IMG/VR virus record: IMGVR_UViG_3300045988_004495 | Location: 1-5,791 of that record | Strand: one strand, 5' to 3' | Source of the DNA: a virus | Length of the DNA stretch: 5,791 nucleotides | Shown here: in pieces, positions 1 through 5,791 of the stretch | How positions within the stretch are numbered: the first letter of the stretch is position 1 | How the letters are laid out: the number at the start of each line of letters is the position of its first letter | Translations under genes and position numbers: made by a program | Notes under the pieces: model-generated | What the model was told of the DNA's origin: nothing | Database searches by the model: none | The model's input: the letters and a program-made list of their open reading frames with translations, nothing else

Positions 1-119
1 ATTTTTTTTGTTACGTATCCTGCAACATATCTATATGTTTCTGGTACTGCTTGTGCAATTTGGATTTGACCGTTTCCCCACAGTTTTTCTAGCCATTCAC
101 TTGTATAGTATCCGTTGTG
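1..119. repeat. Terminal direct repeat, copy 1. This is the assembly overlap of a circular genome.
   Basis: By base-by-base comparison, nt 1-119 are identical to nt 5673-5791. The repeat lies inside the VP4 reading frame and restores it. Confidence 0.97.
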
Positions 120-662
120 ATGGATTTTGTACAGCTGTTTTAGGTCTGTTGGTTCCCATCCGTATAGTATCATATGGTAGTGCGGCCTTGCTGTTTGTTC
201 TCCGTATTCTCCCGCACAGAAGAATCTTAATCTTGATTTGTAAGCTCTCCTGAGCCTTTTTAAGAACTTTTGTACGTCTGTGTATAGTAGTGTTTGCACA
301 CTTTCCGGTGTTTTTTTCCCCGGTTTCCATACATATTGCACTTTTCTCATGATTTCGCCTGTGCTAAGAATCATTCCCGGTACGTGGTCATCATCGTAAG
401 TTAGTGTGATAAACCAGATTTGTTCTTTTGGCCATTGTCTCGCCTCTAGTTCTATTCTTGTTGTCCAGTCTTCTCTTTGCTGTATTCTGCACCCAATGCA
501 TTGTCCGCAAGGTATTAACATAACTTTTGGTTCATACATCAAATCTTCATATTTTAATTTTTTGCCCACTCTTTCAGAATAGCGGGCAAGTGAATACACT
601 TGCCCGCTGATTTCTCTGTTTTCTGGGCTGTATATCCGAATTAACGGCTTATAGCAGCTCAT
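1..662 (-). CDS. VP4: Replication initiation protein VP4 (HUH rolling-circle endonuclease), N-terminal 220 codons. The ORF runs off the window start and continues at 5674 because the genome is circular.
   Basis: I hand-translated the minus strand from the ATG at 662-660: MSCYKPLIRIYSPENREISGQVYSLARYSERVGKKLKYEDLMYEPKVMLIPCGQCIGCRIQQREDWTTRIELEARQWPKEQIWFITLTYDDDHVPGMILSTGEIMRKVQYVWKPGKKTPESVQTLLYTDVQKFLKRLRRAYKSRLRFFCAGEYGEQTARPHYHMILYGWEPTDLKQLYKIHHNGYYTSEWLEKLWGNGQIQIAQAVPETYRYVAGYVTKK. There is no stop down to nt 3. The frame matches tracked ORF 5315..5674 after wrap (662-2=660, divisible by 3). Motifs present are FITLTY (RCR motif 1), PHYHMILY (HUH, codons 174-182) and YVAGYVTKK (two catalytic Tyr, codons 27-29 and 15-17; compare phiX174 protein A YVAKYVNKK). 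AGGAG lies 10 nt upstream, inside the VP2 3' end. The ORF is absent from the track, presumably because it has no in-window stop. Confidence 0.92.
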   Translation of the reverse strand, partial: MSCYKPLIRIYSPENREISGQVYSLARYSERVGKKLKYEDLMYEPKVMLIPCGQCIGCRIQQREDWTTRIELEARQWPKEQIWFITLTYDDDHVPGMILSTGEIMRKVQYVWKPGKKTPESVQTLLYTDVQKFLKRLRRAYKSRLRFFCAGEYGEQTARPHYHMILYGWEPTDLKQLYKIHHNGYYTSEWLEKLWGNGQIQIAQAVPETYRYVAGYVTKK

Positions 663-665
663 TTT

Positions 666-1559
666 TTATTTGCTCCTTCCTGCACCACCACCGGCTCTAT
701 TTCTATTGCCTGTGATGTTGTCAATTCCGTGTCCGTTTCTTACGTTGTCCATGGCTTTGTTCATGTTTCCTCTTAATTTTTCGCCTGTTTTTCTGCCTGC
801 TCCGATTGCTTTATCGATTGCGTTTCCTGTGTTTTTGCCGATGTTGGATAGTGTTTCCTGCAATCCTAACGGCGTCATTCCTGTACTGCTAAGCATCTGA
901 TTCCAGCTTTGTGCGGCGTTGTACCAGTCACTTTGTGACCAACTTTCACTTGAGTACGAGTTGGGTACAAAGCCACTTGCTCTGCTTACTCCTAGCGCAC
1001 TTGACGATGGCGCACCCATGCTTGCACCTGAAATTGTTCCTGCGCTACCTCCCGGTGTGCTTGCGCCGCCGTTCTGGAATGCCAATATAGGATTAAGTCC
1101 AGCTTTTTTCATGTCCGCAACTGCTCTTTGATAGGCTGTGTTAGACATGTGTTCTTGCCATTCCCTGTTTTTCATTGCTTCCGTTGAGTTAAAGTTCATC
1201 GCCGCGCTGTTCTCGATGTGGTTGTATATGCCTTGCGCGATTGCTCCTAACGTGTTGTAACCCATCTGTTCCAGCATTGACCTTTGATTGAATTGACTTT
1301 GCCTTTGCCCTTCTGCGTTTTGATATTGGTATGCGCCTTTCAGGTATTGCATTACTTGTTCGTCATTTGTTCCGGATTTGCTCATGCTCTGACTGCTTCC
1401 ACCGCCTTGCTGTGTGCTTCCGCCTTGGCTTTGGCTTTGACCTACTTGTCCCCATGCGCCGAATGCATTTCCTAGTGCTCCTGCTGCGTTTGCTACTGTT
1501 CCAATTGTTCCTGCAATGTTTCCAATTGTTCCTAGTGCTCCTAAAAGTGAAAATGCCAT
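666..1559 (-). CDS. VP2: Minor capsid / DNA pilot protein VP2
   Basis: This 297-aa ORF lies immediately downstream of the major capsid gene. It has a Gly/Ala-rich hydrophobic N-terminus ([37 protein letters not shown]), a Q/S/G-rich low-complexity region and a central [20 protein letters not shown] segment, all characteristic of gokushovirus VP2. Its stop TAA (668-666) lies 3 nt before the VP4 ATG. Confidence 0.85.
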
Positions 1560-1599: not shown

Positions 1600-3276
1600 T
1601 TATAACTTGTACAGCCCCGGTACGCTGTAAAGCGGCATCCTGCGGGTTGTCTTGTTTGCTACGCGAATTGCTCCAAAGAACTGCGGTTCGTCTTCTACGA
1701 TTAACGTTCTTGCAATTTCCTCTTTTCCTTCTGCCATCCATTCCTGCGACAGTGTGGGCACTGTCGAGTAATTATCTGCATAGTGCCAAAAATCGAGTGT
1801 CCCCGTTGCGTTGCTTCGCATTAAGCCGCTTACACGGTTCGGCTTCATCCGGTAGTCTGCCCATGCTTCTTGATAGCCAAAGGTTTCATCATCGGTTGCA
1901 TCGCCGGTGAGCATGATTTCCTTCTTTTTTACTGGCTGTTCGCCCAGATTTGCGAACTGCGGCACGTAATAGTCTAGGCGGTCTTTTCTGCTCCAAAAAC
2001 GTTCAAGGCCCTGTTGGTAGCTTCTGTTATGTCTTACACAACATACTCCAATTACAAAGCCGTGCTCTTCAAAACTCTTTGTGAAAGAACTCTCATTGAT
2101 GGGTGTTACAGACATTGCACCGGTTTCACCGATAGGTGTGTCGTTGCTTGTCTGCTGTCCACTGGTCTGCACGATTTGGTTAATGTTGACGTGGTAGCGT
2201 CCACCACCCAGGTATTCAGGCACTTGTACTGTTTTATCCGAAATGATTACATCCCAGATTGCCTGTACCTGCTCTCTGTACCTGGAACCGCCCCGTGCTA
2301 GCGCTTCATAGTACTGTTGTACGCTGATTGCCTGCCGCAACTGGTTGATTGTTGCCGATGTTGCATTGTCTAGTCTTGCTTCCATTGGTACCCATGTAGA
2401 TACACCGTTTGCATCTTTGCCCAAAAGTACCCTTGGCTTTCCGTTATCTTCGTTTTTTGTGGGTGCTCCTAATGTATTTCCGCTTGCCGGTACAAGATGC
2501 GTTGCACCGTTGCTGGTCATGATTCCGTAGTCCTGTAGTTCCTCTGCTGAAAAACTCCATTGTACTCTTGCATTTCCAGTTAGCGGCAGTGTTACGCTTG
2601 GCCCACGTTGAGCATATGGCATGCAGGATGTGAAATAGTCGTGGAATTTATTTACCGGCAGCGGTCTTCCTCCTGTTACTGCTTCAAGTAATGTTACTGA
2701 CATTACTTCTTTGCCCGGGATATCACTCATTGAATAGCTTACATCTTTATCATCTGTTTTGATTGTCGCTGCGTTTCCAACGTTTTCATCTCTGAAAAAT
2801 TCGTTCCAGATTTTAACGTATGCTCTGACAGGTAGCGCGTTGATGCTGAACGGCTTCTCTACTTTTGTGGGGACTCCCATATAATCCAGTATCGTTTTTT
2901 CATTTGGCATTGGGAACGTTTTACTTCCGTTGATTTTGATTTGCGGCATAGCATACGTTTTTGTAGGCATCCACGGCGTTTCCTCTACTTCGCCCATAAA
3001 GTGCTTAAAGTTGTCCCACAAAATGCGGTTTGGACAGAAGAAATAGTAAAAGTCAATAAAACTGTCGTCCATTACTGGGTATTTTGGAGTTGTCATGCGG
3101 ATGATTGCCGCTGTATCCACACTGAATGTGTCGCCTGGTAATACTTCATCTACGTAAAACGGGATGAGTTTGCCCGCGTCGAACGTTGTCAAAATCGTCT
3201 GGTCTCGATTGAACCGCGTTCGGCTTGCTTTCATCTGTGGAATCTCGTTAAAATGCCGTTCGTTATTCCGATTCAT
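1600..3276 (-). CDS. VP1: Major capsid protein VP1 (phage F-protein family)
   Basis: This 558-aa ORF is the largest in the genome. Its N-terminus, MNRNNERHFNEIPQMKASRTRFNRDQTILTTFDAGKLIPFYVDEVLPGDTF, matches the conserved gokushovirus VP1 signature (S/TR.RF......TTFD.G.LIP...DEVLPGDT). AGGAG lies 9 nt upstream of the ATG (GAAGGAGAGTTGAAGAATG). Confidence 0.95.
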   Translation of the reverse strand: MNRNNERHFNEIPQMKASRTRFNRDQTILTTFDAGKLIPFYVDEVLPGDTFSVDTAAIIRMTTPKYPVMDDSFIDFYYFFCPNRILWDNFKHFMGEVEETPWMPTKTYAMPQIKINGSKTFPMPNEKTILDYMGVPTKVEKPFSINALPVRAYVKIWNEFFRDENVGNAATIKTDDKDVSYSMSDIPGKEVMSVTLLEAVTGGRPLPVNKFHDYFTSCMPYAQRGPSVTLPLTGNARVQWSFSAEELQDYGIMTSNGATHLVPASGNTLGAPTKNEDNGKPRVLLGKDANGVSTWVPMEARLDNATSATINQLRQAISVQQYYEALARGGSRYREQVQAIWDVIISDKTVQVPEYLGGGRYHVNINQIVQTSGQQTSNDTPIGETGAMSVTPINESSFTKSFEEHGFVIGVCCVRHNRSYQQGLERFWSRKDRLDYYVPQFANLGEQPVKKKEIMLTGDATDDETFGYQEAWADYRMKPNRVSGLMRSNATGTLDFWHYADNYSTVPTLSQEWMAEGKEEIARTLIVEDEPQFFGAIRVANKTTRRMPLYSVPGLYKL

Positions 3277-3661
3277 TCTTCAACTCTCCTTCTTTTGGCT
3301 TTTCTTTTGGCGTTTCTTTCTGCATCTCCTGCAGTGCGATTGCGTTTGCTTGTGCCGTTGCAATCATTCGGTGATATTCGTGGATGTTCTGTGGCCAGTT
3401 CGTGATATCCATCTCTGTCCCGTCCAATGCTCCCTGTGAAAGGCTCTGCATAAACTGCGGGTCAAAACTCGCTTTTCGGACGATGTTTTTAATGTCGCAT
3501 TCTTCTGCATAGCTTTCAATTTCTGCTTGGATGTCAATACTTTCTGTTTCCTGCAGATATTCTTTTCCCTCTTTGTCTTTTGCCCATACGTACTGTTTAC
3601 GTTGTGTTTCTCCTGATGCTGAAAAGAGGGGCTTTCGCCCCTCTTCGTACCTCTTATTCAT
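3263..3661 (-). CDS. VP3: Internal scaffolding protein VP3
   Basis: This 132-aa acidic protein lies directly upstream of VP1 and overlaps it by 14 nt. The segments IQAEIESYAEECDIKNIVRKA and DITNWPQNIHEYHRMIATAQ resemble the conserved core of Chlamydia-phage-type scaffold proteins. The start overlaps the stop of the upstream ORF (ATGAATAA), and GGGAGGG lies 8 nt upstream. Confidence 0.7.
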   Translation of the reverse strand: MNKRYEEGRKPLFSASGETQRKQYVWAKDKEGKEYLQETESIDIQAEIESYAEECDIKNIVRKASFDPQFMQSLSQGALDGTEMDITNWPQNIHEYHRMIATAQANAIALQEMQKETPKEKPKEGELKNESE

Positions 3662-3893
3662 CCTCTTTGCCCTCCCATGCTTTATCGTTCATGTTCCGGA
3701 ATTCGCCGGTTTCGTCTTCAAACTCTGCCAGCTTATAGCCCACATAGTCAGCCGGGGACTGGCCGATAAATGTGCTCTTGTCCTTCTGCATCACATTGCA
3801 CATTCGTGCAAACGTGTTGTTGTTTTTGCTTTCGCCTACCCATGCGTAACATTTTGCAATTTTGTCGTAGATACCATAGTAGCCATGAATCAT
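3654..3893 (-). CDS. Small nonstructural protein, possibly VP5-like. Function is unknown.
   Basis: This 79-aa ORF has an AAGGA Shine-Dalgarno sequence 6-7 nt upstream and is tightly packed between the J-like gene and VP3. The pattern YGIYDKIAKCY...NNNTFARM...DYVGYKLAEFEDETGE resembles, from memory, the IYD.KA..Y / G.FD..TGE pattern of small conserved gokushovirus nonstructural proteins. I could not verify this. Confidence 0.55.
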   Translation of the reverse strand: MIHGYYGIYDKIAKCYAWVGESKNNNTFARMCNVMQKDKSTFIGQSPADYVGYKLAEFEDETGEFRNMNDKAWEGKEDE

Positions 3894-3908: not shown

Positions 3909-4031
3909 TTAGAGCCGAATCCCGCCGCGCATTGGCTTCTGACTTAGGTTGATACTTTTTGTTTTTCGCGCGGTTACGTTAAACATGTGTTTGTCTTTTG
4001 CGCCGCGCATGATTTTACGATGTCGCCCCAT
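3909..4031 (-). CDS. Small basic DNA-binding/packaging protein (phiX J-like, gokushovirus ORF8-like), 40 aa from an internal start of the tracked 63-aa ORF
   Basis: The sequence is MGRHRKIMRGAKDKHMFNVTARKTKSINLSQKPMRGGIRL, with 12 Arg/Lys in 40 aa and the characteristic C-terminal PMRGGIRL. The ATG at 4031 has GAAGGGGG 7 nt upstream. The longer form from 4100 would overlap the 75-aa ORF by about 86 nt, and I did not look for an SD before it. Confidence 0.75.
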   Translation of the reverse strand: MGRHRKIMRGAKDKHMFNVTARKTKSINLSQKPMRGGIRL

Positions 4032-4242
4032 TATAGAACCCCCTTCTGATAAGTTCCAACTCGATGGCTTCGGCAAAACTTTTGCATTGCCAAATTTCAT
4101 CTATCATCTTTTTTGCGGTATTAATCTCGCTGATTTTTCGCAGGATTTTGTAATCGTTGTCGATTTCTTTGTATTTTTTTTCGAGCAGTTCAGTTAGGTC
4201 TTTTTCGGTCTGGTCTCTGACATTCCATGATTTTGCATTCAT
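4015..4242 (-). CDS. Hypothetical protein, 75 aa, predicted helical and charged
   Basis: This is a tracked ORF on the coding strand. AAGGAA lies 9 nt upstream of the ATG, and the ORF fits the compact gene packing, with a 17-nt overlap on the J-like gene. I recognise no motif in it. Confidence 0.5.
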   Translation of the reverse strand: MNAKSWNVRDQTEKDLTELLEKKYKEIDNDYKILRKISEINTAKKMIDEIWQCKSFAEAIELELIRRGFYNGATS

Positions 4243-4248
4243 TTTTGT

Positions 4249-4365
4249 TTATTCCTTTTCGTTCGGCTGGTCGTGCAGGGCATGATAAATCTCGTCCAGC
4301 TTTTCCAAGATTCGCATCATAATTTCGATTGCCTGTTTCACGTCTTTAATGGAAATCAGTGCCAT
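4249..4365 (-). CDS. Hypothetical small protein, 38 aa, not in the ORF track
   Basis: Hand translation gives MALISIKDVKQAIEIMMRILEKLDEIYHALHDQPNEKE*. The ATG at 4365 is 2 nt after the peptidase stop and has GGGGG 7 nt upstream, the same architecture as the J-like gene. The ORF exactly fills the gap between two other genes, and its stop is 6 nt before the next ATG. Confidence 0.45.
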   Translation of the reverse strand: MALISIKDVKQAIEIMMRILEKLDEIYHALHDQPNEKE

Positions 4366-4367
4366 TT

Positions 4368-4760
4368 TTATACCCCCTTTCTGTATTTTGTGTTTCGTGT
4401 ATCAAAATGCACCCAGTTGTCGTATACGATGATACCGCAGCTGTTTGGCACGATTTTGTCTAGTACTTTTGCAAGTTCTTTTGGCTTTATGCCGGCTGAT
4501 CTGATGTCTGCTGCCATTCCTCTTGTATGGTAGCTGTATTTTGCTCCACCTACTTTTGCGTTGTGGCTTACTGTGCGGTATCCGCTTGTGATTGTTATTG
4601 GCTTCCCGATTTTATCTCTTGCAATGTCAAGAAGGATTGCTAGATATTCGTCAACGAACACGATTGGCGTGTTGTCTTTACAGGCGAATTCTTTTACTCG
4701 GAAATGGTTTGTAATTTTTACGTTTCCTTGTGTTTCCATTACATACGCTTTGATTTCCAT
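4368..4760 (-). CDS. Zinc metallopeptidase of the M15 / hedgehog-DD-peptidase fold (Peptidase_M15_3-like), a putative peptidoglycan hydrolase (endolysin-like)
   Basis: This 130-aa ORF carries the ordered family motifs FRVKEFACKD, SGYRTVSHN, SYH(78)TRGMAAD(85) and WVH(118)FD(120). These correspond to the H..D..H zinc ligands and the SGYR...N substrate-binding motif. AGGAG lies 9 nt upstream of the ATG at 4760. There is no N-terminal signal peptide or hydrophobic segment. Confidence 0.8.
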   Translation of the reverse strand: MEIKAYVMETQGNVKITNHFRVKEFACKDNTPIVFVDEYLAILLDIARDKIGKPITITSGYRTVSHNAKVGGAKYSYHTRGMAADIRSAGIKPKELAKVLDKIVPNSCGIIVYDNWVHFDTRNTKYRKGV

Positions 4761-4793
4761 GGTTTGCTTCTCCTTTCTTTGCTTTCATTTGAT

Positions 4794-4822
4794 ATGTTAT
4801 CATACACCTACTGAATTTTCAA
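4794..4822 (-). promoter_or_regulatory. Candidate sigma70-type promoter for the peptidase-led operon
   Basis: The coding strand reads TTGAAA (4822-4817), a 17-nt spacer, then TAACAT (4799-4794), about 35 nt upstream of the peptidase ATG. The -35 element lies inside one arm of the 49-nt inverted repeat. The match is to a generic consensus only. Confidence 0.3.
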
Positions 4823-4855
4823 GGGTTGCACAGCAACTTTTGAAAATTCAGTAGG
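4807..4855. repeat. 49-nt inverted repeat (long hairpin or cruciform) upstream of the peptidase gene
   Basis: CCTACTGAATTTTCAA (4807-4822) is the perfect reverse complement of TTGAAAATTCAGTAGG (4840-4855). Pairing extends inward through GGGTTG/CAACTT (4 Watson-Crick pairs plus 2 G-T) to a 5-nt loop, CACAG (4829-4833). Confidence 0.9.
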
Positions 4856-4868
4856 TTCGCCGCAGGCG

Positions 4869-4896
4869 TTTTTAACATTTTCCACAGACTTTTCAA
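4869..4896 (-). promoter_or_regulatory. Candidate promoter with an extended -10 element
   Basis: The coding strand reads TTGAAA (4896-4891), a 16-nt spacer, then TGT-TAAAAA (4877-4869). It is built from the repeated motif itself, so specificity is uncertain. Confidence 0.25.
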
Positions 4897-5032
4897 CATT
4901 TCAACATTGTTAAACTTTAGCATAACAGAGTGTTTTAACATTTTAACATTTTTTCAACAAATCTTTTAACGTTTGTTTTTACTTTTTTTTAACGTTTTAA
5001 CGTTCAAAATTATCTGTTTTCAACTTTTCCAC
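4869..5032. repeat. Array of T-tract + YAACRT motifs (iteron-like), flanked by TTTTCCAC
   Basis: On the plus strand, YAACRT cores start at 4873, 4894, 4902, 4936, 4944, 4967, 4990 and 4998. Variants are CAACAA at 4955, CAACTT at 5021 and TAACAG at 4923. There are three tandem doublets with 8-bp spacing. Each core is preceded by T3-T8. TTTTCCAC occurs at 4878-4885 and 5025-5032. Confidence 0.85.
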
Positions 5033-5070
5033 TTACTCTACTACTACGGCTACAACAAGTTATATAATAA

Positions 5071-5116
5071 TACGCGTGCGCATGTGCGCGCGTCTACGCG
5101 TGCGCATGTGCGCGCG
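5071..5116. repeat. Perfect tandem direct repeat, 2 x 22 nt (TACGCGTGCGCATGTGCGCGCG) separated by TC. Each copy is a strictly alternating purine-pyrimidine tract.
   Basis: Copy 1 is 5071-5092 and copy 2 is 5095-5116, and they are identical. The alternating R/Y runs span 5070-5093 and 5095-5116. Each unit is also an imperfect palindrome centred on CATG (16 of 20 positions self-complementary; the other 4 are G-T). Confidence 0.95.
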
Positions 5117-5137
5117 ATACATTAGCATCTATCGATA

Positions 5138-5168
5138 GCGACAGCCCCATGAGCTGGGGCGCTGTCGC
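5138..5168. other. GC-rich bulged hairpin
   Basis: GCGACA (5138-5143) pairs with TGTCGC (5163-5168), and GCCCCA (5144-5149) pairs with TGGGGC (5155-5160). There is a 2-nt bulge (5161-5162) and a 5-nt loop, TGAGC. Confidence 0.8.
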
Positions 5169-5196
5169 AAGGGGGAGACCTTTGGTCTCCCCCTTG
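5168..5196. other. Perfect 13-bp hairpin with a 3-nt loop
   Basis: CAAGGGGGAGACC (5168-5180), TTT, then GGTCTCCCCCTTG (5184-5196). It abuts the previous hairpin and shares C5168 with it. There is no U/T tract on either strand. Confidence 0.9.
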
Positions 5197-5269
5197 CTAA
5201 ACTAACTAGAGTGTAATATGATATTTTTAACTCATTTTCGGTGTCTCTTTGAGAAACCAGACGGAAGAG

Positions 5270-5303
5270 AAGCCCAGTACCTTACTTGATAGGTACTGGG
5301 CTT
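5270..5303 (-). terminator. 13-bp stem hairpin 11 nt downstream of the VP4 stop. It is a candidate end-of-operon terminator or an origin hairpin.
   Basis: AAGCCCAGTACCT (5270-5282) pairs perfectly with AGGTACTGGGCTT (5291-5303). The 8-nt loop is TACTTGAT on the plus strand. On the coding strand the stem is followed by CUCUUCC, which is pyrimidine-rich but not a clean U-tract. Confidence 0.4.
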
Positions 5304-5314
5304 GGTGACACTGA

Positions 5315-5791
5315 TTAGAGTATTCCACGTTTTTTCGTTTGTTTTTTTGTAACACGCTCTTTTGTTTCTAACTGCGTTTTGTAGTCTTTGCCTTCAAGCT
5401 GCAATCTTTTTTGTTCGATTGCCTTTCTTTGTCTGTTCTGCTTGATTCTCCACAGCCTTTCCGGGTTTTCTTTTTCCATCATCTTTTCATAGTATCGCGG
5501 TATTTGTGCCTGTTTTCCGTTCGTACATTGAATGTAGCCTTGTTTCCAGATTTCTTCTTTGTGCTCTTGATAGTAGGCATCTCCTAGCCCCGGTTTAAGT
5601 GACATGCACGCGAATGGCTTTTGCTGTCCTAATTCATAGTAAGCATTTGCTTTCTTGCCGTCAATTTCGTACATTTTTTTTGTTACGTATCCTGCAACAT
5701 ATCTATATGTTTCTGGTACTGCTTGTGCAATTTGGATTTGACCGTTTCCCCACAGTTTTTCTAGCCATTCACTTGTATAGTATCCGTTGTG
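5315..5791 (-). CDS. VP4: Replication initiation protein VP4, C-terminal part. The tracked 119-aa ORF plus 39 upstream in-frame codons lie in the terminal repeat. The true start is at 662 after circular wrap.
   Basis: The tracked ORF 5315..5674 begins at an internal Met of the YVTKKMYEIDGKK segment. Positions 5675-5791 are identical to 3-119 and stay open in the same frame. The stop TAA is at 5317-5315. The lysine/arginine-rich C-terminal tail (RQRKAIEQKR...KKQTKKRGIL) is typical of microvirus Rep proteins. Confidence 0.9.
   Translation of the reverse strand, partial: HNGYYTSEWLEKLWGNGQIQIAQAVPETYRYVAGYVTKKMYEIDGKKANAYYELGQQKPFACMSLKPGLGDAYYQEHKEEIWKQGYIQCTNGKQAQIPRYYEKMMEKENPERLWRIKQNRQRKAIEQKRLQLEGKDYKTQLETKERVTKKQTKKRGIL
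5673..5791. repeat. Terminal direct repeat, copy 2. This is the assembly overlap of a circular genome.
   Basis: This copy is identical to nt 1-119, which implies a circular unit of 5672 nt. Confidence 0.97.

Follow-up and report, generated by a model that had tools for sequence, protein, structure and literature searches.

A Peptidase_M15_3 Gene without an Evident Membrane Partner in a Complete Gokushovirus Genome

The window analyzed here, that is, the whole stretch of 5,791 nt, has a redundant end: bases 5673-5791 duplicate bases 1-119 exactly, and the genome is therefore a circle of 5,672 nt, the features of which are collected in Table 1. A Gokushovirinae-type context was taken to consist of VP1-VP5, all encoded on the same strand of a ∼4.5-6-kb circular genome. 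The full set of VP1, VP2, VP3, VP4, and VP5 is present on one strand of the circle and, judged from its sequence, the window is one complete gokushovirus genome. An earlier sequence-only reading of this DNA had called it a microvirus, and the Pfam matches of VP1 (Phage_F) and VP3 (Chlamy_scaf), the PHROGs match of the VP2 pilot protein, and the presence of VP4 and VP5 bear this out. The same reading had placed the peptidase gene first after a control region, with ORFs of 38, 75, 40, and 79 aa as neighbors; the 554-nt stretch upstream of the gene is indeed non-coding, and all four ORFs exist. The position directly after the control region is not obviously a "late" one, which counts against reading the gene as an endolysin. 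The control region contains six TTTTAACRTTT repeats, two 22-nt GC-rich repeats, and four hairpins, together with promoter-like sites on its minus strand (for example, 4822 to 4794). No canonical intrinsic terminator was returned by the terminator scan, though the hairpins are strong, and no RNA family (Rfam) was found in the window.

Downstream of the peptidase gene, the helix of ORF38 is strongly amphipathic (muH 0.70). A role of ORF38 as a peptidase-specific partner or chaperone was rejected because ORF38 also occurs in gokushoviruses that lack the peptidase; its distribution makes it one of the lineage's backbone genes. ORF75 accompanies the peptidase in 64 of the peptidase-bearing sources; none of the four genomes examined that lack the peptidase has it. 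The start assigned to VP8 is supported by a Shine-Dalgarno sequence, AGGGGG, upstream of it. The N-terminal 60 residues of VP2 are Gly-rich and uncharged and form the most hydrophobic segment on the coding strand (Kyte-Doolittle value over 19 residues, KD19, of 1.46).

Table 1. Features of the window, in order of position
Feature	Position	Strand	Remarks
VP4 replication initiator, N-terminal part	1-662	-	Spans the circle junction; 339 aa in total
VP2 DNA pilot protein	666-1559	-	PHROGs
VP1 major capsid protein	1600-3276	-	Pfam Phage_F, E 1.6e-134
VP3 internal scaffold	3263-3661	-	Pfam Chlamy_scaf
VP5	3654-3893	-	Phage_ORF5
VP8/J-like basic DNA-binding protein	3909-4031	-	40 aa from M24 of a 63-aa ORF; phrog_10695
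ORF75	4015-4242	-	Helical 75-aa protein
ORF38	4249-4365	-	Conserved 38-aa acidic amphipathic-helix protein directly downstream of the peptidase
Peptidase gene	4368-4760	-	ATG start, 130 aa; predicted single-domain Peptidase_M15_3, LAS-type zinc peptidoglycan peptidase, endolysin-like
Codons H118-F-D120	4401-4409	-	H118, 4407-4409; D120, 4401-4403; at the position of LAS "H-x-H"
Codons H78 to D85 (H-x6-D)	4506-4529	-	H78, 4527-4529; D85, 4506-4508
Codon R62 of the SGYR motif	4575-4577	-	Invariant
Peptidase start codon ATG	4758-4760	-	
Control region	4761-5314		Non-coding, 554 nt; between VP4 stop and peptidase start
GGAG Shine-Dalgarno	4770-4773	-	9 nt 5' of the peptidase ATG
"ORF40"	4819-4941		In the control region; lacks a Shine-Dalgarno; probably not a gene
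VP4 replication initiator, C-terminal part	5315-5672	-	
Terminal repeat	5673-5791		Assembly overlap of a circular contig, not biology

The 130-aa protein matches Pfam Peptidase_M15_3 (PF08291) at 78.4 bits against a cut-off of 23.2 bits (E 5.4e-22), with residues 19-120 covering positions 2-108 of the 108 in the profile, and PHROG 894, "endolysin," with an E value of 4.9e-40. Membership of the M15 family had been proposed from a full ordered set of motifs, and every motif is in place: FRVKEFACKD at residues 20-29, SGYRTVSHN at residues 59-67, the first metal motif, H78-x6-D85, which conforms to the H-x(3-6)-D of the family, and a second motif, V117-H118-F119-D120. Some homologues carry the JGI name MepK/YcbK (DUF882). 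This identity was considered for the present protein and rejected, the scores lying below threshold in both Pfam (23.4 versus 27) and NCBIfam (39 versus 185). With a net charge of +8, the small protein is strongly basic, and it is without a wall-binding domain. Its N terminus, MEIKAYVMETQGNVKITNHFRVKEF, is hydrophilic and, in agreement with the sequence-only reading, neither a signal peptide nor a TM segment was found in the protein, nor a SAR domain; the maximum KD19 of 1.08 falls in an internal, buried helix. N-terminally extended, membrane-anchored isoforms were also considered and rejected, as the 142-199-aa versions in databases are hydrophilic read-throughs of the control region. The gene is intact and, from its dN/dS of 0.08-0.30 against 26 relatives, under purifying selection.

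H78 and D85 do not vary among 37 microviral and 28 diverse homologues (alignments A1 and A2), and H118, D120, and R62 are likewise invariant in the homologue alignments. The best solved relative is the Streptomyces albus G zinc D-Ala-D-Ala carboxypeptidase (PDB 1LBU; phmmer 6.6e-5, profile 9e-12, and Foldseek top match), the Zn ligands of which, H154 and D161, align in sequence with H78 and D85. This enzyme (MEROPS M15A, LAS fold) is ∼28% identical over the aligned columns and differs in having an extra N-terminal PG-binding domain. The sequence and profile alignments to 1LBU end before the H118-x-D120 motif, which sits on a predicted β strand (117-120) and reads H-x-D as opposed to the "H-x-H" of LAS enzymes; this second active-site motif would supply the third ligand and the catalytic residue, and H118, which the sequence-only reading had assigned as the third metal ligand, is a plausible candidate for it. 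In the PDB, the top Foldseek matches of a structural model of moderate confidence (pLDDT 79.8) were all M15/LAS enzymes, namely 1lbu (prob 1.00), VanXYc, the LysECD7 endolysin, and LdcB, at weak scores (best E 7e-3, TM 0.45). The top matches in BFVD were phage "Peptidase M15A" proteins, including those of Microvirus mar50/52/54/59, with E values down to 2e-11 and TM of 0.64-0.67. The modeled fold is consistent with that of solved M15/LAS enzymes, as had been anticipated from the motifs, and this evidence identifies the protein as a zinc peptidase of the M15 family whose active site is conserved.

The subfamily comprises 896 database matches and 299 IMG/VR loci, and the closest public protein cluster (P0001) is 98% identical to the peptidase. 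KX513868.1 encodes a peptidase that is also 130 aa long, 80% identical in protein and 81% in nucleotide sequence, at the same genome position, in an order that runs from the control region to the peptidase, then to ORF38 and on to VP3. In the nearest genome, MZ821031 (86.8% nucleotide identity), identity is 89-92% for ORF38, ORF75, and VP8 but only 60% for the peptidase. In KT264799, MG945157, MG945391, and MG945423, the ORF38/VP8/VP5/VP3 synteny is found without the peptidase, and there are no TM ORFs in these genomes either. These comparisons suggest that the peptidase is an accessory gene, exchanged as a cassette between microvirus lineages.

Among more distant proteins, those with 36%-48% identity are annotated endolysins of SP6, K1-5-like, Vibrio, Klebsiella, and Faecalibacterium phages, many of which adjoin an annotated holin. 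In the Clostridia/Lachnospiraceae prophages L002-L004, the homologue comes after holin-like ORFs with three and two TM segments. Over the whole group of tailed-phage M15_3 endolysins (SP6 gp46 and its counterparts in the phages and prophages named above), full-length identity to the microviral peptidase is 36%-50% and the motifs are shared; single-domain members are equal to it in size, so that microviral and tailed-phage homologues have the same length and the same motifs. The tailed-phage enzymes adjoin holins or carry wall-binding or GH25 modules, whereas the microviral gene has neither. Outside the microviruses, the nearest relatives carry fused GH25 muramidase, PG_binding_1, SH3_3, ricin-lectin, or dockerin modules, which indicates that they would act on the assembled wall. 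The single-domain form is more typical of endolysins from phages of Gram-negative hosts, and the nearest cellular homologues are from Firmicutes; this observation, too, counts against an endolysin.

Canonical endolysins depend on a holin, and a cytoplasmic endolysin without export is normally inert, a further point against an endolysin role. ChiX, an LAS peptidase that has no signal peptide, needs its holin ChiW (PMC5778951). A TM scan was performed on stop-to-stop frames of at least 20 codons in all three coding-strand frames, with a threshold of Kyte-Doolittle 1.6 over 19 residues. Over the whole genome, no TM-grade segment was found on the minus strand at this threshold, the highest KD19 values being those of the VP2 N terminus and of the buried helix of the peptidase, and a looser scan (1.3 over 17 residues) added nothing that was conserved. 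As a positive control, the same scan recovered the 3-TM and 2-TM holin-like ORFs beside the homologues in prophages L002-L004. No coding-strand ORF with a TM-grade segment was found in 77 of 80 related genomes, nor was a holin, signal or SAR sequence, or E-like overprinted membrane gene recognized in these 77. Small TM ORFs occur on the coding strand of L011 (55 aa, overlapping the peptidase start) and of KT264793 (39 aa, in the VP8-VP5 interval). That these two and the TM ORF of L056 form a family of microviral holins was considered and rejected, since none matches a PHROG holin or has a homologue at another locus. An antisense holin over the peptidase (a 97-aa plus-strand ORF at 4561-4854) was also rejected, since open antisense frames are not maintained across 26 relatives; hydrophobic ORFs on the plus strand are to be expected because of the T-rich composition.

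Analogous to the present genome, phiX174 is a tiny ssDNA phage that achieves lysis without a holin-endolysin pair. Its protein E, which inhibits MraY and has no enzymatic activity, is a membrane protein whose gene is overprinted and whose TM helix is N-terminal. An E-like overprinted small ORF with such a helix was not found in the three coding frames here; frames that overlap VP1 are sporadic and not conserved. The sequence-only reading had reported neither a holin nor an E-like gene, and its claim stands for all coding-strand ORFs of at least 20 aa. At the level of the scans, therefore, neither mark of a canonical holin-endolysin cassette was detected, be it a nearby holin or an endolysin with a signal peptide or SAR domain of its own.

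M15_3 peptidases were described in human-gut Gokushovirinae and Alpavirinae in 2012, when an endolysin role was proposed and the gokushovirus enzymes were tied to Firmicutes (Faecalibacterium) (Roux et al., PMC3394797). The present gene belongs to the same Pfam family and the same virus group and is a further allele. Microvirus peptidases are treated as standard lysis-associated accessory genes (PMC9239249; PMC11499846), the reported accessory lysis genes of microviruses being peptidases or amidases (PMC9239249), and GenBank relatives are annotated as "peptidase M15" (KX513868.1) or "similar to peptidase" (MG945xxx records). The rarity implied by the sequence-only reading thus does not hold: horizontally acquired M15 peptidases in microviruses have been known since 2012 and are routinely annotated, and the gene is textbook-adjacent. 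Its remark that no functional test was known is correct for the present subfamily in a microvirus but not for microviruses at large, as purified Gp7 of the microvirus Ebor degrades peptidoglycan in zymograms (2025, PMC11980548). Ebor Gp7, with an HHpred match to 6SSC (PMC11980548), is likewise an accessory microvirus peptidoglycan hydrolase of similar size (146 aa). It comes from another subfamily, Tainavirinae, and from a phage of Rhodobacter, and Ebor has a 45-aa predicted membrane protein whereas the present genome has none.

On balance, we consider it probable, though well short of assured, that the protein is a catalytic-domain-only endolysin that derives from tailed phages of Firmicutes, was exchanged as a cassette, and aids progeny release on top of a holin-less lysis route. 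An ancestor of the gut gokushovirus clade would have captured the gene from Firmicutes (Clostridia) tailed-phage lysis cassettes or wall hydrolases, and it would then have been kept by purifying selection and swapped as a cassette between microvirus lineages. The peptidase, if catalytically competent as its active site suggests, would cut peptidoglycan stem peptides; it may build up in the cytoplasm late in infection, dissolve the wall, and free the progeny. With neither a holin nor a signal peptide or SAR domain encoded, the enzyme would have to reach the wall without a dedicated phage membrane protein. The likeliest access is through failure of the membrane or envelope caused by the lineage's own putative core lysis mechanism, since both a peptidase and a TM ORF are missing from more distant gokushoviruses in which the ORF38-VP8-VP5-VP3 order is the same. 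The peptidase would then hasten or complete lysis and not trigger it. A holin may nevertheless be helpful, as a few relatives (L011 and KT264793) carry small TM ORFs.

The lack of an export device in the window and in 77 of the 80 relatives would also fit a peptidase that never leaves the cell interior. Such a cytoplasmic "enzymatic amurin" would destroy stem-peptide precursors (D-Ala-D-Ala, UDP-MurNAc-pentapeptide, or inner-leaflet lipid I/II), and with wall synthesis blocked, growing cells would lyse as they do with phiX174 E, so that no holin is needed. The best solved relative by sequence, 1LBU, is a DD-carboxypeptidase that acts on pentapeptide termini; VanXY-type D,D-peptidases are among the fold matches; and both the peptidases and the amidases reported as microvirus accessory genes (PMC9239249) could, we infer, act on soluble precursors. 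Overexpression of cytoplasmic VanX lyses E. coli by depletion of D-Ala-D-Ala, according to work cited in PMC11514776 (Sohya, 2014; Kamioka, 2013). VanX, a zinc D-Ala-D-Ala dipeptidase of the type that Foldseek groups with M15/LAS enzymes (the VanXY matches), would by that citation lyse from the cytoplasm without export; it differs in being a dipeptidase of a vancomycin-resistance operon, with only distant, fold-level similarity to the peptidase. Against action on precursors, homologues that are 40%-50% identical adjoin holins and carry fused wall-binding or muramidase modules, their normal substrate being the assembled wall, and no sequence feature, length and motifs included, sets the microviral clade apart from them. 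Moreover, tailed phages hold such enzymes in the cytoplasm before holin triggering and, to our knowledge, no premature lysis has been reported. We therefore regard this mode of action as unlikely.

A holin would equally not be required if a few packaged or capsid-bound copies of the enzyme opened the peptidoglycan locally at genome delivery, a role that would matter especially for a host with a thick Gram-positive wall. Tailed phages do have M15 domains within large tail or virion proteins (e.g., 905-1191 aa, Gp5-like), and a small protein with a charge of +8 is compatible with co-packaging with ssDNA. Ebor Gp7 was found in purified virions (PMC11980548), but the signal was at trace level, and the T=1 capsid of gokushoviruses offers very little free space. 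The peptidase has no capsid-targeting extension relative to tailed-phage endolysins, the closest homologues whose context can be identified are lysis-cassette endolysins, and the peptidase-less related genomes show that the backbone does not require the enzyme, all of which makes a function at entry improbable. An ordinary holin-endolysin or E-like arrangement whose membrane partner was overlooked (an ORF below 20 aa, overprinted, antisense, or weakly hydrophobic) might be suggested by the small coding-strand TM ORFs of L011 and KT264793, the 45-aa membrane protein of Ebor (PMC11980548), the long, uncharged, Gly-zipper-like VP2 N terminus, or the amphipathic helix of ORF38, but it is very improbable given that a scan able to detect the real holins of L002-L004 found no segment at KD19 1.6 in three coding frames down to 20 codons and that nothing conserved appeared at 1.3, that antisense frames across the peptidase are not kept open and plus-strand hydrophobicity follows from T-rich composition, that the L011 ORF is without a homologue in any other locus, and that ORF38 and the VP2 N terminus also occur in peptidase-less genomes.

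In an abundant gut clade represented by ∼80 genomes, a membrane ORF hardly ever occurs together with the peptidase, whereas holins do accompany its homologues in tailed phages of the likely host group. This makes the clade a clean test bed for two questions: whether an endolysin can function without a holin and whether such an enzyme acts on cytoplasmic precursors. Genome synthesis has precedents in other gokushoviruses (PMC7062461). Three single-gene lysis routes are known, by inhibition of MraY, MurA, or MurJ. Precursor destruction, if true, would add a fourth, in which the substrate is destroyed, and it would explain why a whole gut gokushovirus clade keeps an "endolysin" without a membrane partner. 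The Firmicutes affinity of the peptidase is also among the few hints at a host for gut gokushoviruses that are uncultured.

The sequence-only reading had described a 130-residue microviral protein bearing the motifs of M15 zinc peptidases, and the open reading frame is there, with the stated length and each of the quoted motifs, residue for residue. Pfam Peptidase_M15_3 is matched over its entire profile at 78.4 bits (threshold 23.2), and PHROG 894 "endolysin" at 4.9e-40; both bear out the proposed family. The only match among PDB sequences (phmmer) is 1LBU, the zinc DD-carboxypeptidase of Streptomyces albus; a profile built from diverse homologues lifts this match to 9e-12. For an AlphaFold2 model (pLDDT 79.8), the best Foldseek matches in the PDB are all M15/LAS enzymes, with weak E-values: 1lbu (probability 1.0), VanXYc, the LysECD7 endolysin and LdcB. 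Predicted viral structures gave strong matches (to 2e-11), namely phage "Peptidase M15A" proteins, several of them from Microvirus mar isolates. R62, H78, D85, H118 and D120 do not vary among 37 microviral sequences, nor among 28 with identities as low as 38%, and dN/dS is 0.08-0.30 against 26 relatives. Together, the profile matches, the 1LBU alignment, the fold matches, the invariant residues and the dN/dS values make the enzyme identity secure. Of the proposed metal site, H78 and D85 align with H154 and D161 of 1LBU; H118 stands level with D120 as candidate third ligand, the alignments to solved structures ending before the H118-x-D120 motif. The microviral protein is the catalytic domain alone.

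Positions 5673-5791 are an exact copy of 1-119; this 119-nt terminal duplication is the assembly overlap of a circular contig, giving a genome of 5,672 nt. Every gene lies on the - strand, and strong Shine-Dalgarno sites (GGAG, GGGGG or AGGA) precede nearly all of them. By megablast, the neighbors are gut Gokushovirinae of humans, pigs and monkeys, the nearest genome being MZ821031 (86.8% identical across 85% of the window).

Genes, in coding order, and control-region elements of the window
Feature	Position	Strand	Remarks
Non-coding (control) region	5314 to 4761		554 nt; first in coding order
Peptidase	4760-4368	-	second in coding order
ORF38	4365-4249	-	directly downstream of peptidase
ORF75	4242-4015	-	after ORF38
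VP8/J-like	4031-3909	-	after ORF75
VP5	3893-3654	-	Pfam/PHROGs, Phage_ORF5
VP3	3661-3263	-	Pfam/PHROGs, Chlamy_scaf
VP1	3276-1600	-	Pfam/PHROGs, Phage_F, 1.6e-134
VP2 pilot protein	1559-666	-	Pfam/PHROGs
VP4 replication initiator	662-1, then 5672-5315	-	Pfam/PHROGs; crosses circle junction
TTTTAACRTTT repeats	4870-5005		six copies
GC-rich 22-nt repeats	5071 and 5095		two, perfect; TACGCGTGCGCATGTGCGCGCG
Hairpin	4806-4856		24-nt arms
Hairpins	5138-5168; 5167-5197; 5270-5303		three more, four in all

All stop-to-stop frames of at least 20 codons on both strands of the circularized genome were scanned for transmembrane (TM) segments (Kyte-Doolittle 1.6 over 19 residues). No coding-strand frame reached this threshold, in agreement with the earlier claim that no holin or E-like gene accompanies the peptidase. 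The highest coding-strand hydrophobicity belongs to the N terminus of VP2 (1.46), followed by a buried helix in the peptidase. Residues 1-60 of VP2, the most membrane-like coding-strand segment, are uncharged and Gly/Ala-rich with a repeated small-xxx-small spacing, and are conserved in relatives whether or not these have the peptidase. Hydrophobic ORFs abound on the + strand because that strand is T-rich; an antisense ORF over the peptidase gene was rejected, its frames not being held open in relatives. Among 80 related complete or near-complete IMG/VR genomes, retrieved via their peptidase and scanned likewise, 77 have no small coding-strand TM ORF. A lower threshold added only the peptidase's own helix, a pseudo-ORF derived from control-region repeats and non-conserved frames within VP1. 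That the scan can detect such ORFs is evident from three Clostridia/Lachnospiraceae prophages with 47% identical homologues, where it picked out 1-TM, 3-TM and 2-TM ORFs directly upstream of the peptidase. Exceptions among the microviruses are a 55-residue one-TM ORF overlapping the peptidase start codon in one relative (L011, 2775-2942) and a 39-residue TM ORF between VP8 and VP5 in KT264793.1 (5057-5176), neither with a PHROG holin match or a homologue elsewhere; a further locus (L056) has a small one-TM coding-strand ORF at 111-260. Each of the three is unique among the loci, and they may be holin-like genes acquired independently or arisen de novo. The peptidase has neither a signal peptide, as originally noted, nor a SAR domain. 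Longer database versions were considered as anchored forms and rejected, being hydrophilic in-frame read-throughs of the control region.

The control region is unusually long and probably houses promoters, terminators or the origin; Rfam gave no match within it, and no canonical terminator was called. "ORF40" (4819-4941, -; MLKHSVMLKFNNVEMLKSLWKMLKT...) shows apparent peptide-level conservation in 14 relatives. It lacks a Shine-Dalgarno site, the DNA repeats are reflected in its MLK/VLK periodicity, and its length ranges from 30 to 140 residues; gene prediction joins it in frame to the peptidase in some relatives (P0018, 188 residues; P0117, 198 residues). The stretch is probably an element at the level of the DNA, not a gene.

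ORF38, which has its own Shine-Dalgarno site, encodes an acidic protein of 38 residues that contains a strongly amphipathic helix (muH 0.70) and has no match in Pfam, PHROG or NCBIfam. All 82 peptidase-bearing sources have ORF38, at 63%-97% identity, often above that of the peptidase, and it is among the best-conserved genes of this gut gokushovirus lineage, peptidase-less genomes included. None of the 31 GenBank records with ORF38 gives it a feature of its own; it is either unannotated or covered only by the annotation of a neighboring gene. Its presence in peptidase-less gokushoviruses led us to reject it as a dedicated peptidase partner. Four such distant genomes (KT264799, MG945157, MG945391 and MG945423) carry ORF38, VP8, VP5 and VP3 in the same order. 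Because this order persists without it, the peptidase is an accessory gene, inserted between the control region and a backbone older than itself. The four genomes likewise lack a TM ORF, and the backbone evidently releases progeny by a mechanism with neither a peptidase nor a recognizable membrane protein. ORF75, helical and without a family match, occurs in 64 of the 82 ORF38-carrying sources with a peptidase and is missing from these four genomes, which have a different ORF of 68-75 residues just upstream of ORF38, the slot taken here by the peptidase. The genome is a mosaic in which the peptidase gene is swapped as a cassette, since the nearest genome, MZ821031, is 89%-92% identical in ORF38, ORF75 and VP8 (85%-92% with VP3 included) and only 60% in the peptidase, whereas the peptidase of the more distant KX513868 is 80% identical. 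Recombination of this kind has been described (Kirchberger et al., 2022; PMC9239249).

A peptidase of this type in a microvirus is a known kind of gene, as publications from 2012 to 2025 and GenBank annotations of the window's relatives ("peptidase M15" or "similar to peptidase") attest. Eleven M15_3 peptidase genes were reported in human-associated Gokushovirinae and Alpavirinae, with horizontal acquisition shown, homologues in holin-endolysin cassettes and an endolysin role proposed (Roux et al., 2012; PMC3394797). Peptidases were later treated as lysis-associated accessory genes in several microvirus families (Kirchberger et al., 2022; PMC9239249), and M15 peptidases occur in cultured marine Occultatumvirinae (PMC11499846). 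Purified Gp7 of microvirus Ebor degrades peptidoglycan; Ebor also has a 45-residue membrane protein (Bardy et al., 2025; PMC11980548). The suggestion that such genes are sporadic in microviruses was an understatement: 896 matches were found at E 1e-5 or better, with 299 IMG/VR loci, and the best 120 of the 896 lie on contigs of ∼6 kb or less, save one of 10 kb.

In 50,697 phage genomes, tblastn matched 348 records; the non-microviral ones are annotated endolysins of SP6, K1-5-like, Klebsiella, Proteus, Vibrio and Faecalibacterium phages (36%-48% identity), often adjoining an annotated holin. Among 1.84 billion cluster representatives there were 11,751 matches, of which the closest non-microviral ones (43%-50% identity) carry the domain joined to GH25 muramidase, PG_binding_1, SH3_3, ricin-lectin, Listeria-Bacteroides-repeat or dockerin modules and are wall hydrolases acting outside the cell and endolysins of modular build, of a kind typical in Firmicutes. 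Among species-representative genomes, relatives were confined to Lachnospiraceae or Clostridia MAGs, in agreement with the Faecalibacterium affinity of gokushovirus peptidases (Roux et al., 2012; PMC3394797). The closest cellular-genome homologue (50% identity; L001, a Lachnospiraceae MAG, 7998-8393) lies in a tailed-phage context between a tail-fibre-like gene and a large terminase gene, with no adjacent holin and no TM ORF nearby.

The initial observation is confirmed, and its interpretation is supported in part. The best-supported reading, which we consider reasonably probable, is an endolysin-type stem-peptide hydrolase assisting progeny release. Such an enzyme would reach the wall only after the membrane had been compromised by the lineage's own core lysis process, and would act as an accelerator of lysis, not its trigger. 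Attack on wall precursors in the cytoplasm would dissolve the paradox of a peptidase with neither export signal nor membrane partner: peptidases, unlike glycosidases, have cytoplasmic substrates, and cytoplasmic VanX lyses E. coli through D-Ala-D-Ala depletion. The holin-linked, wall-targeted relatives nevertheless make this unlikely. Comparably improbable is a virion-borne entry lysin, which is plausible if the host is thick-walled and has precedents in tail-associated M15 domains and the trace amounts of Gp7, and nothing more, in Ebor virions (PMC11980548), but is disfavored by capsid volume and by the context of the homologues. A membrane partner that exists but was missed is more doubtful still, being largely excluded by the TM scans. 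That a membrane partner is systematically absent throughout the clade is a genuine puzzle of modest scope, open to experimental test.
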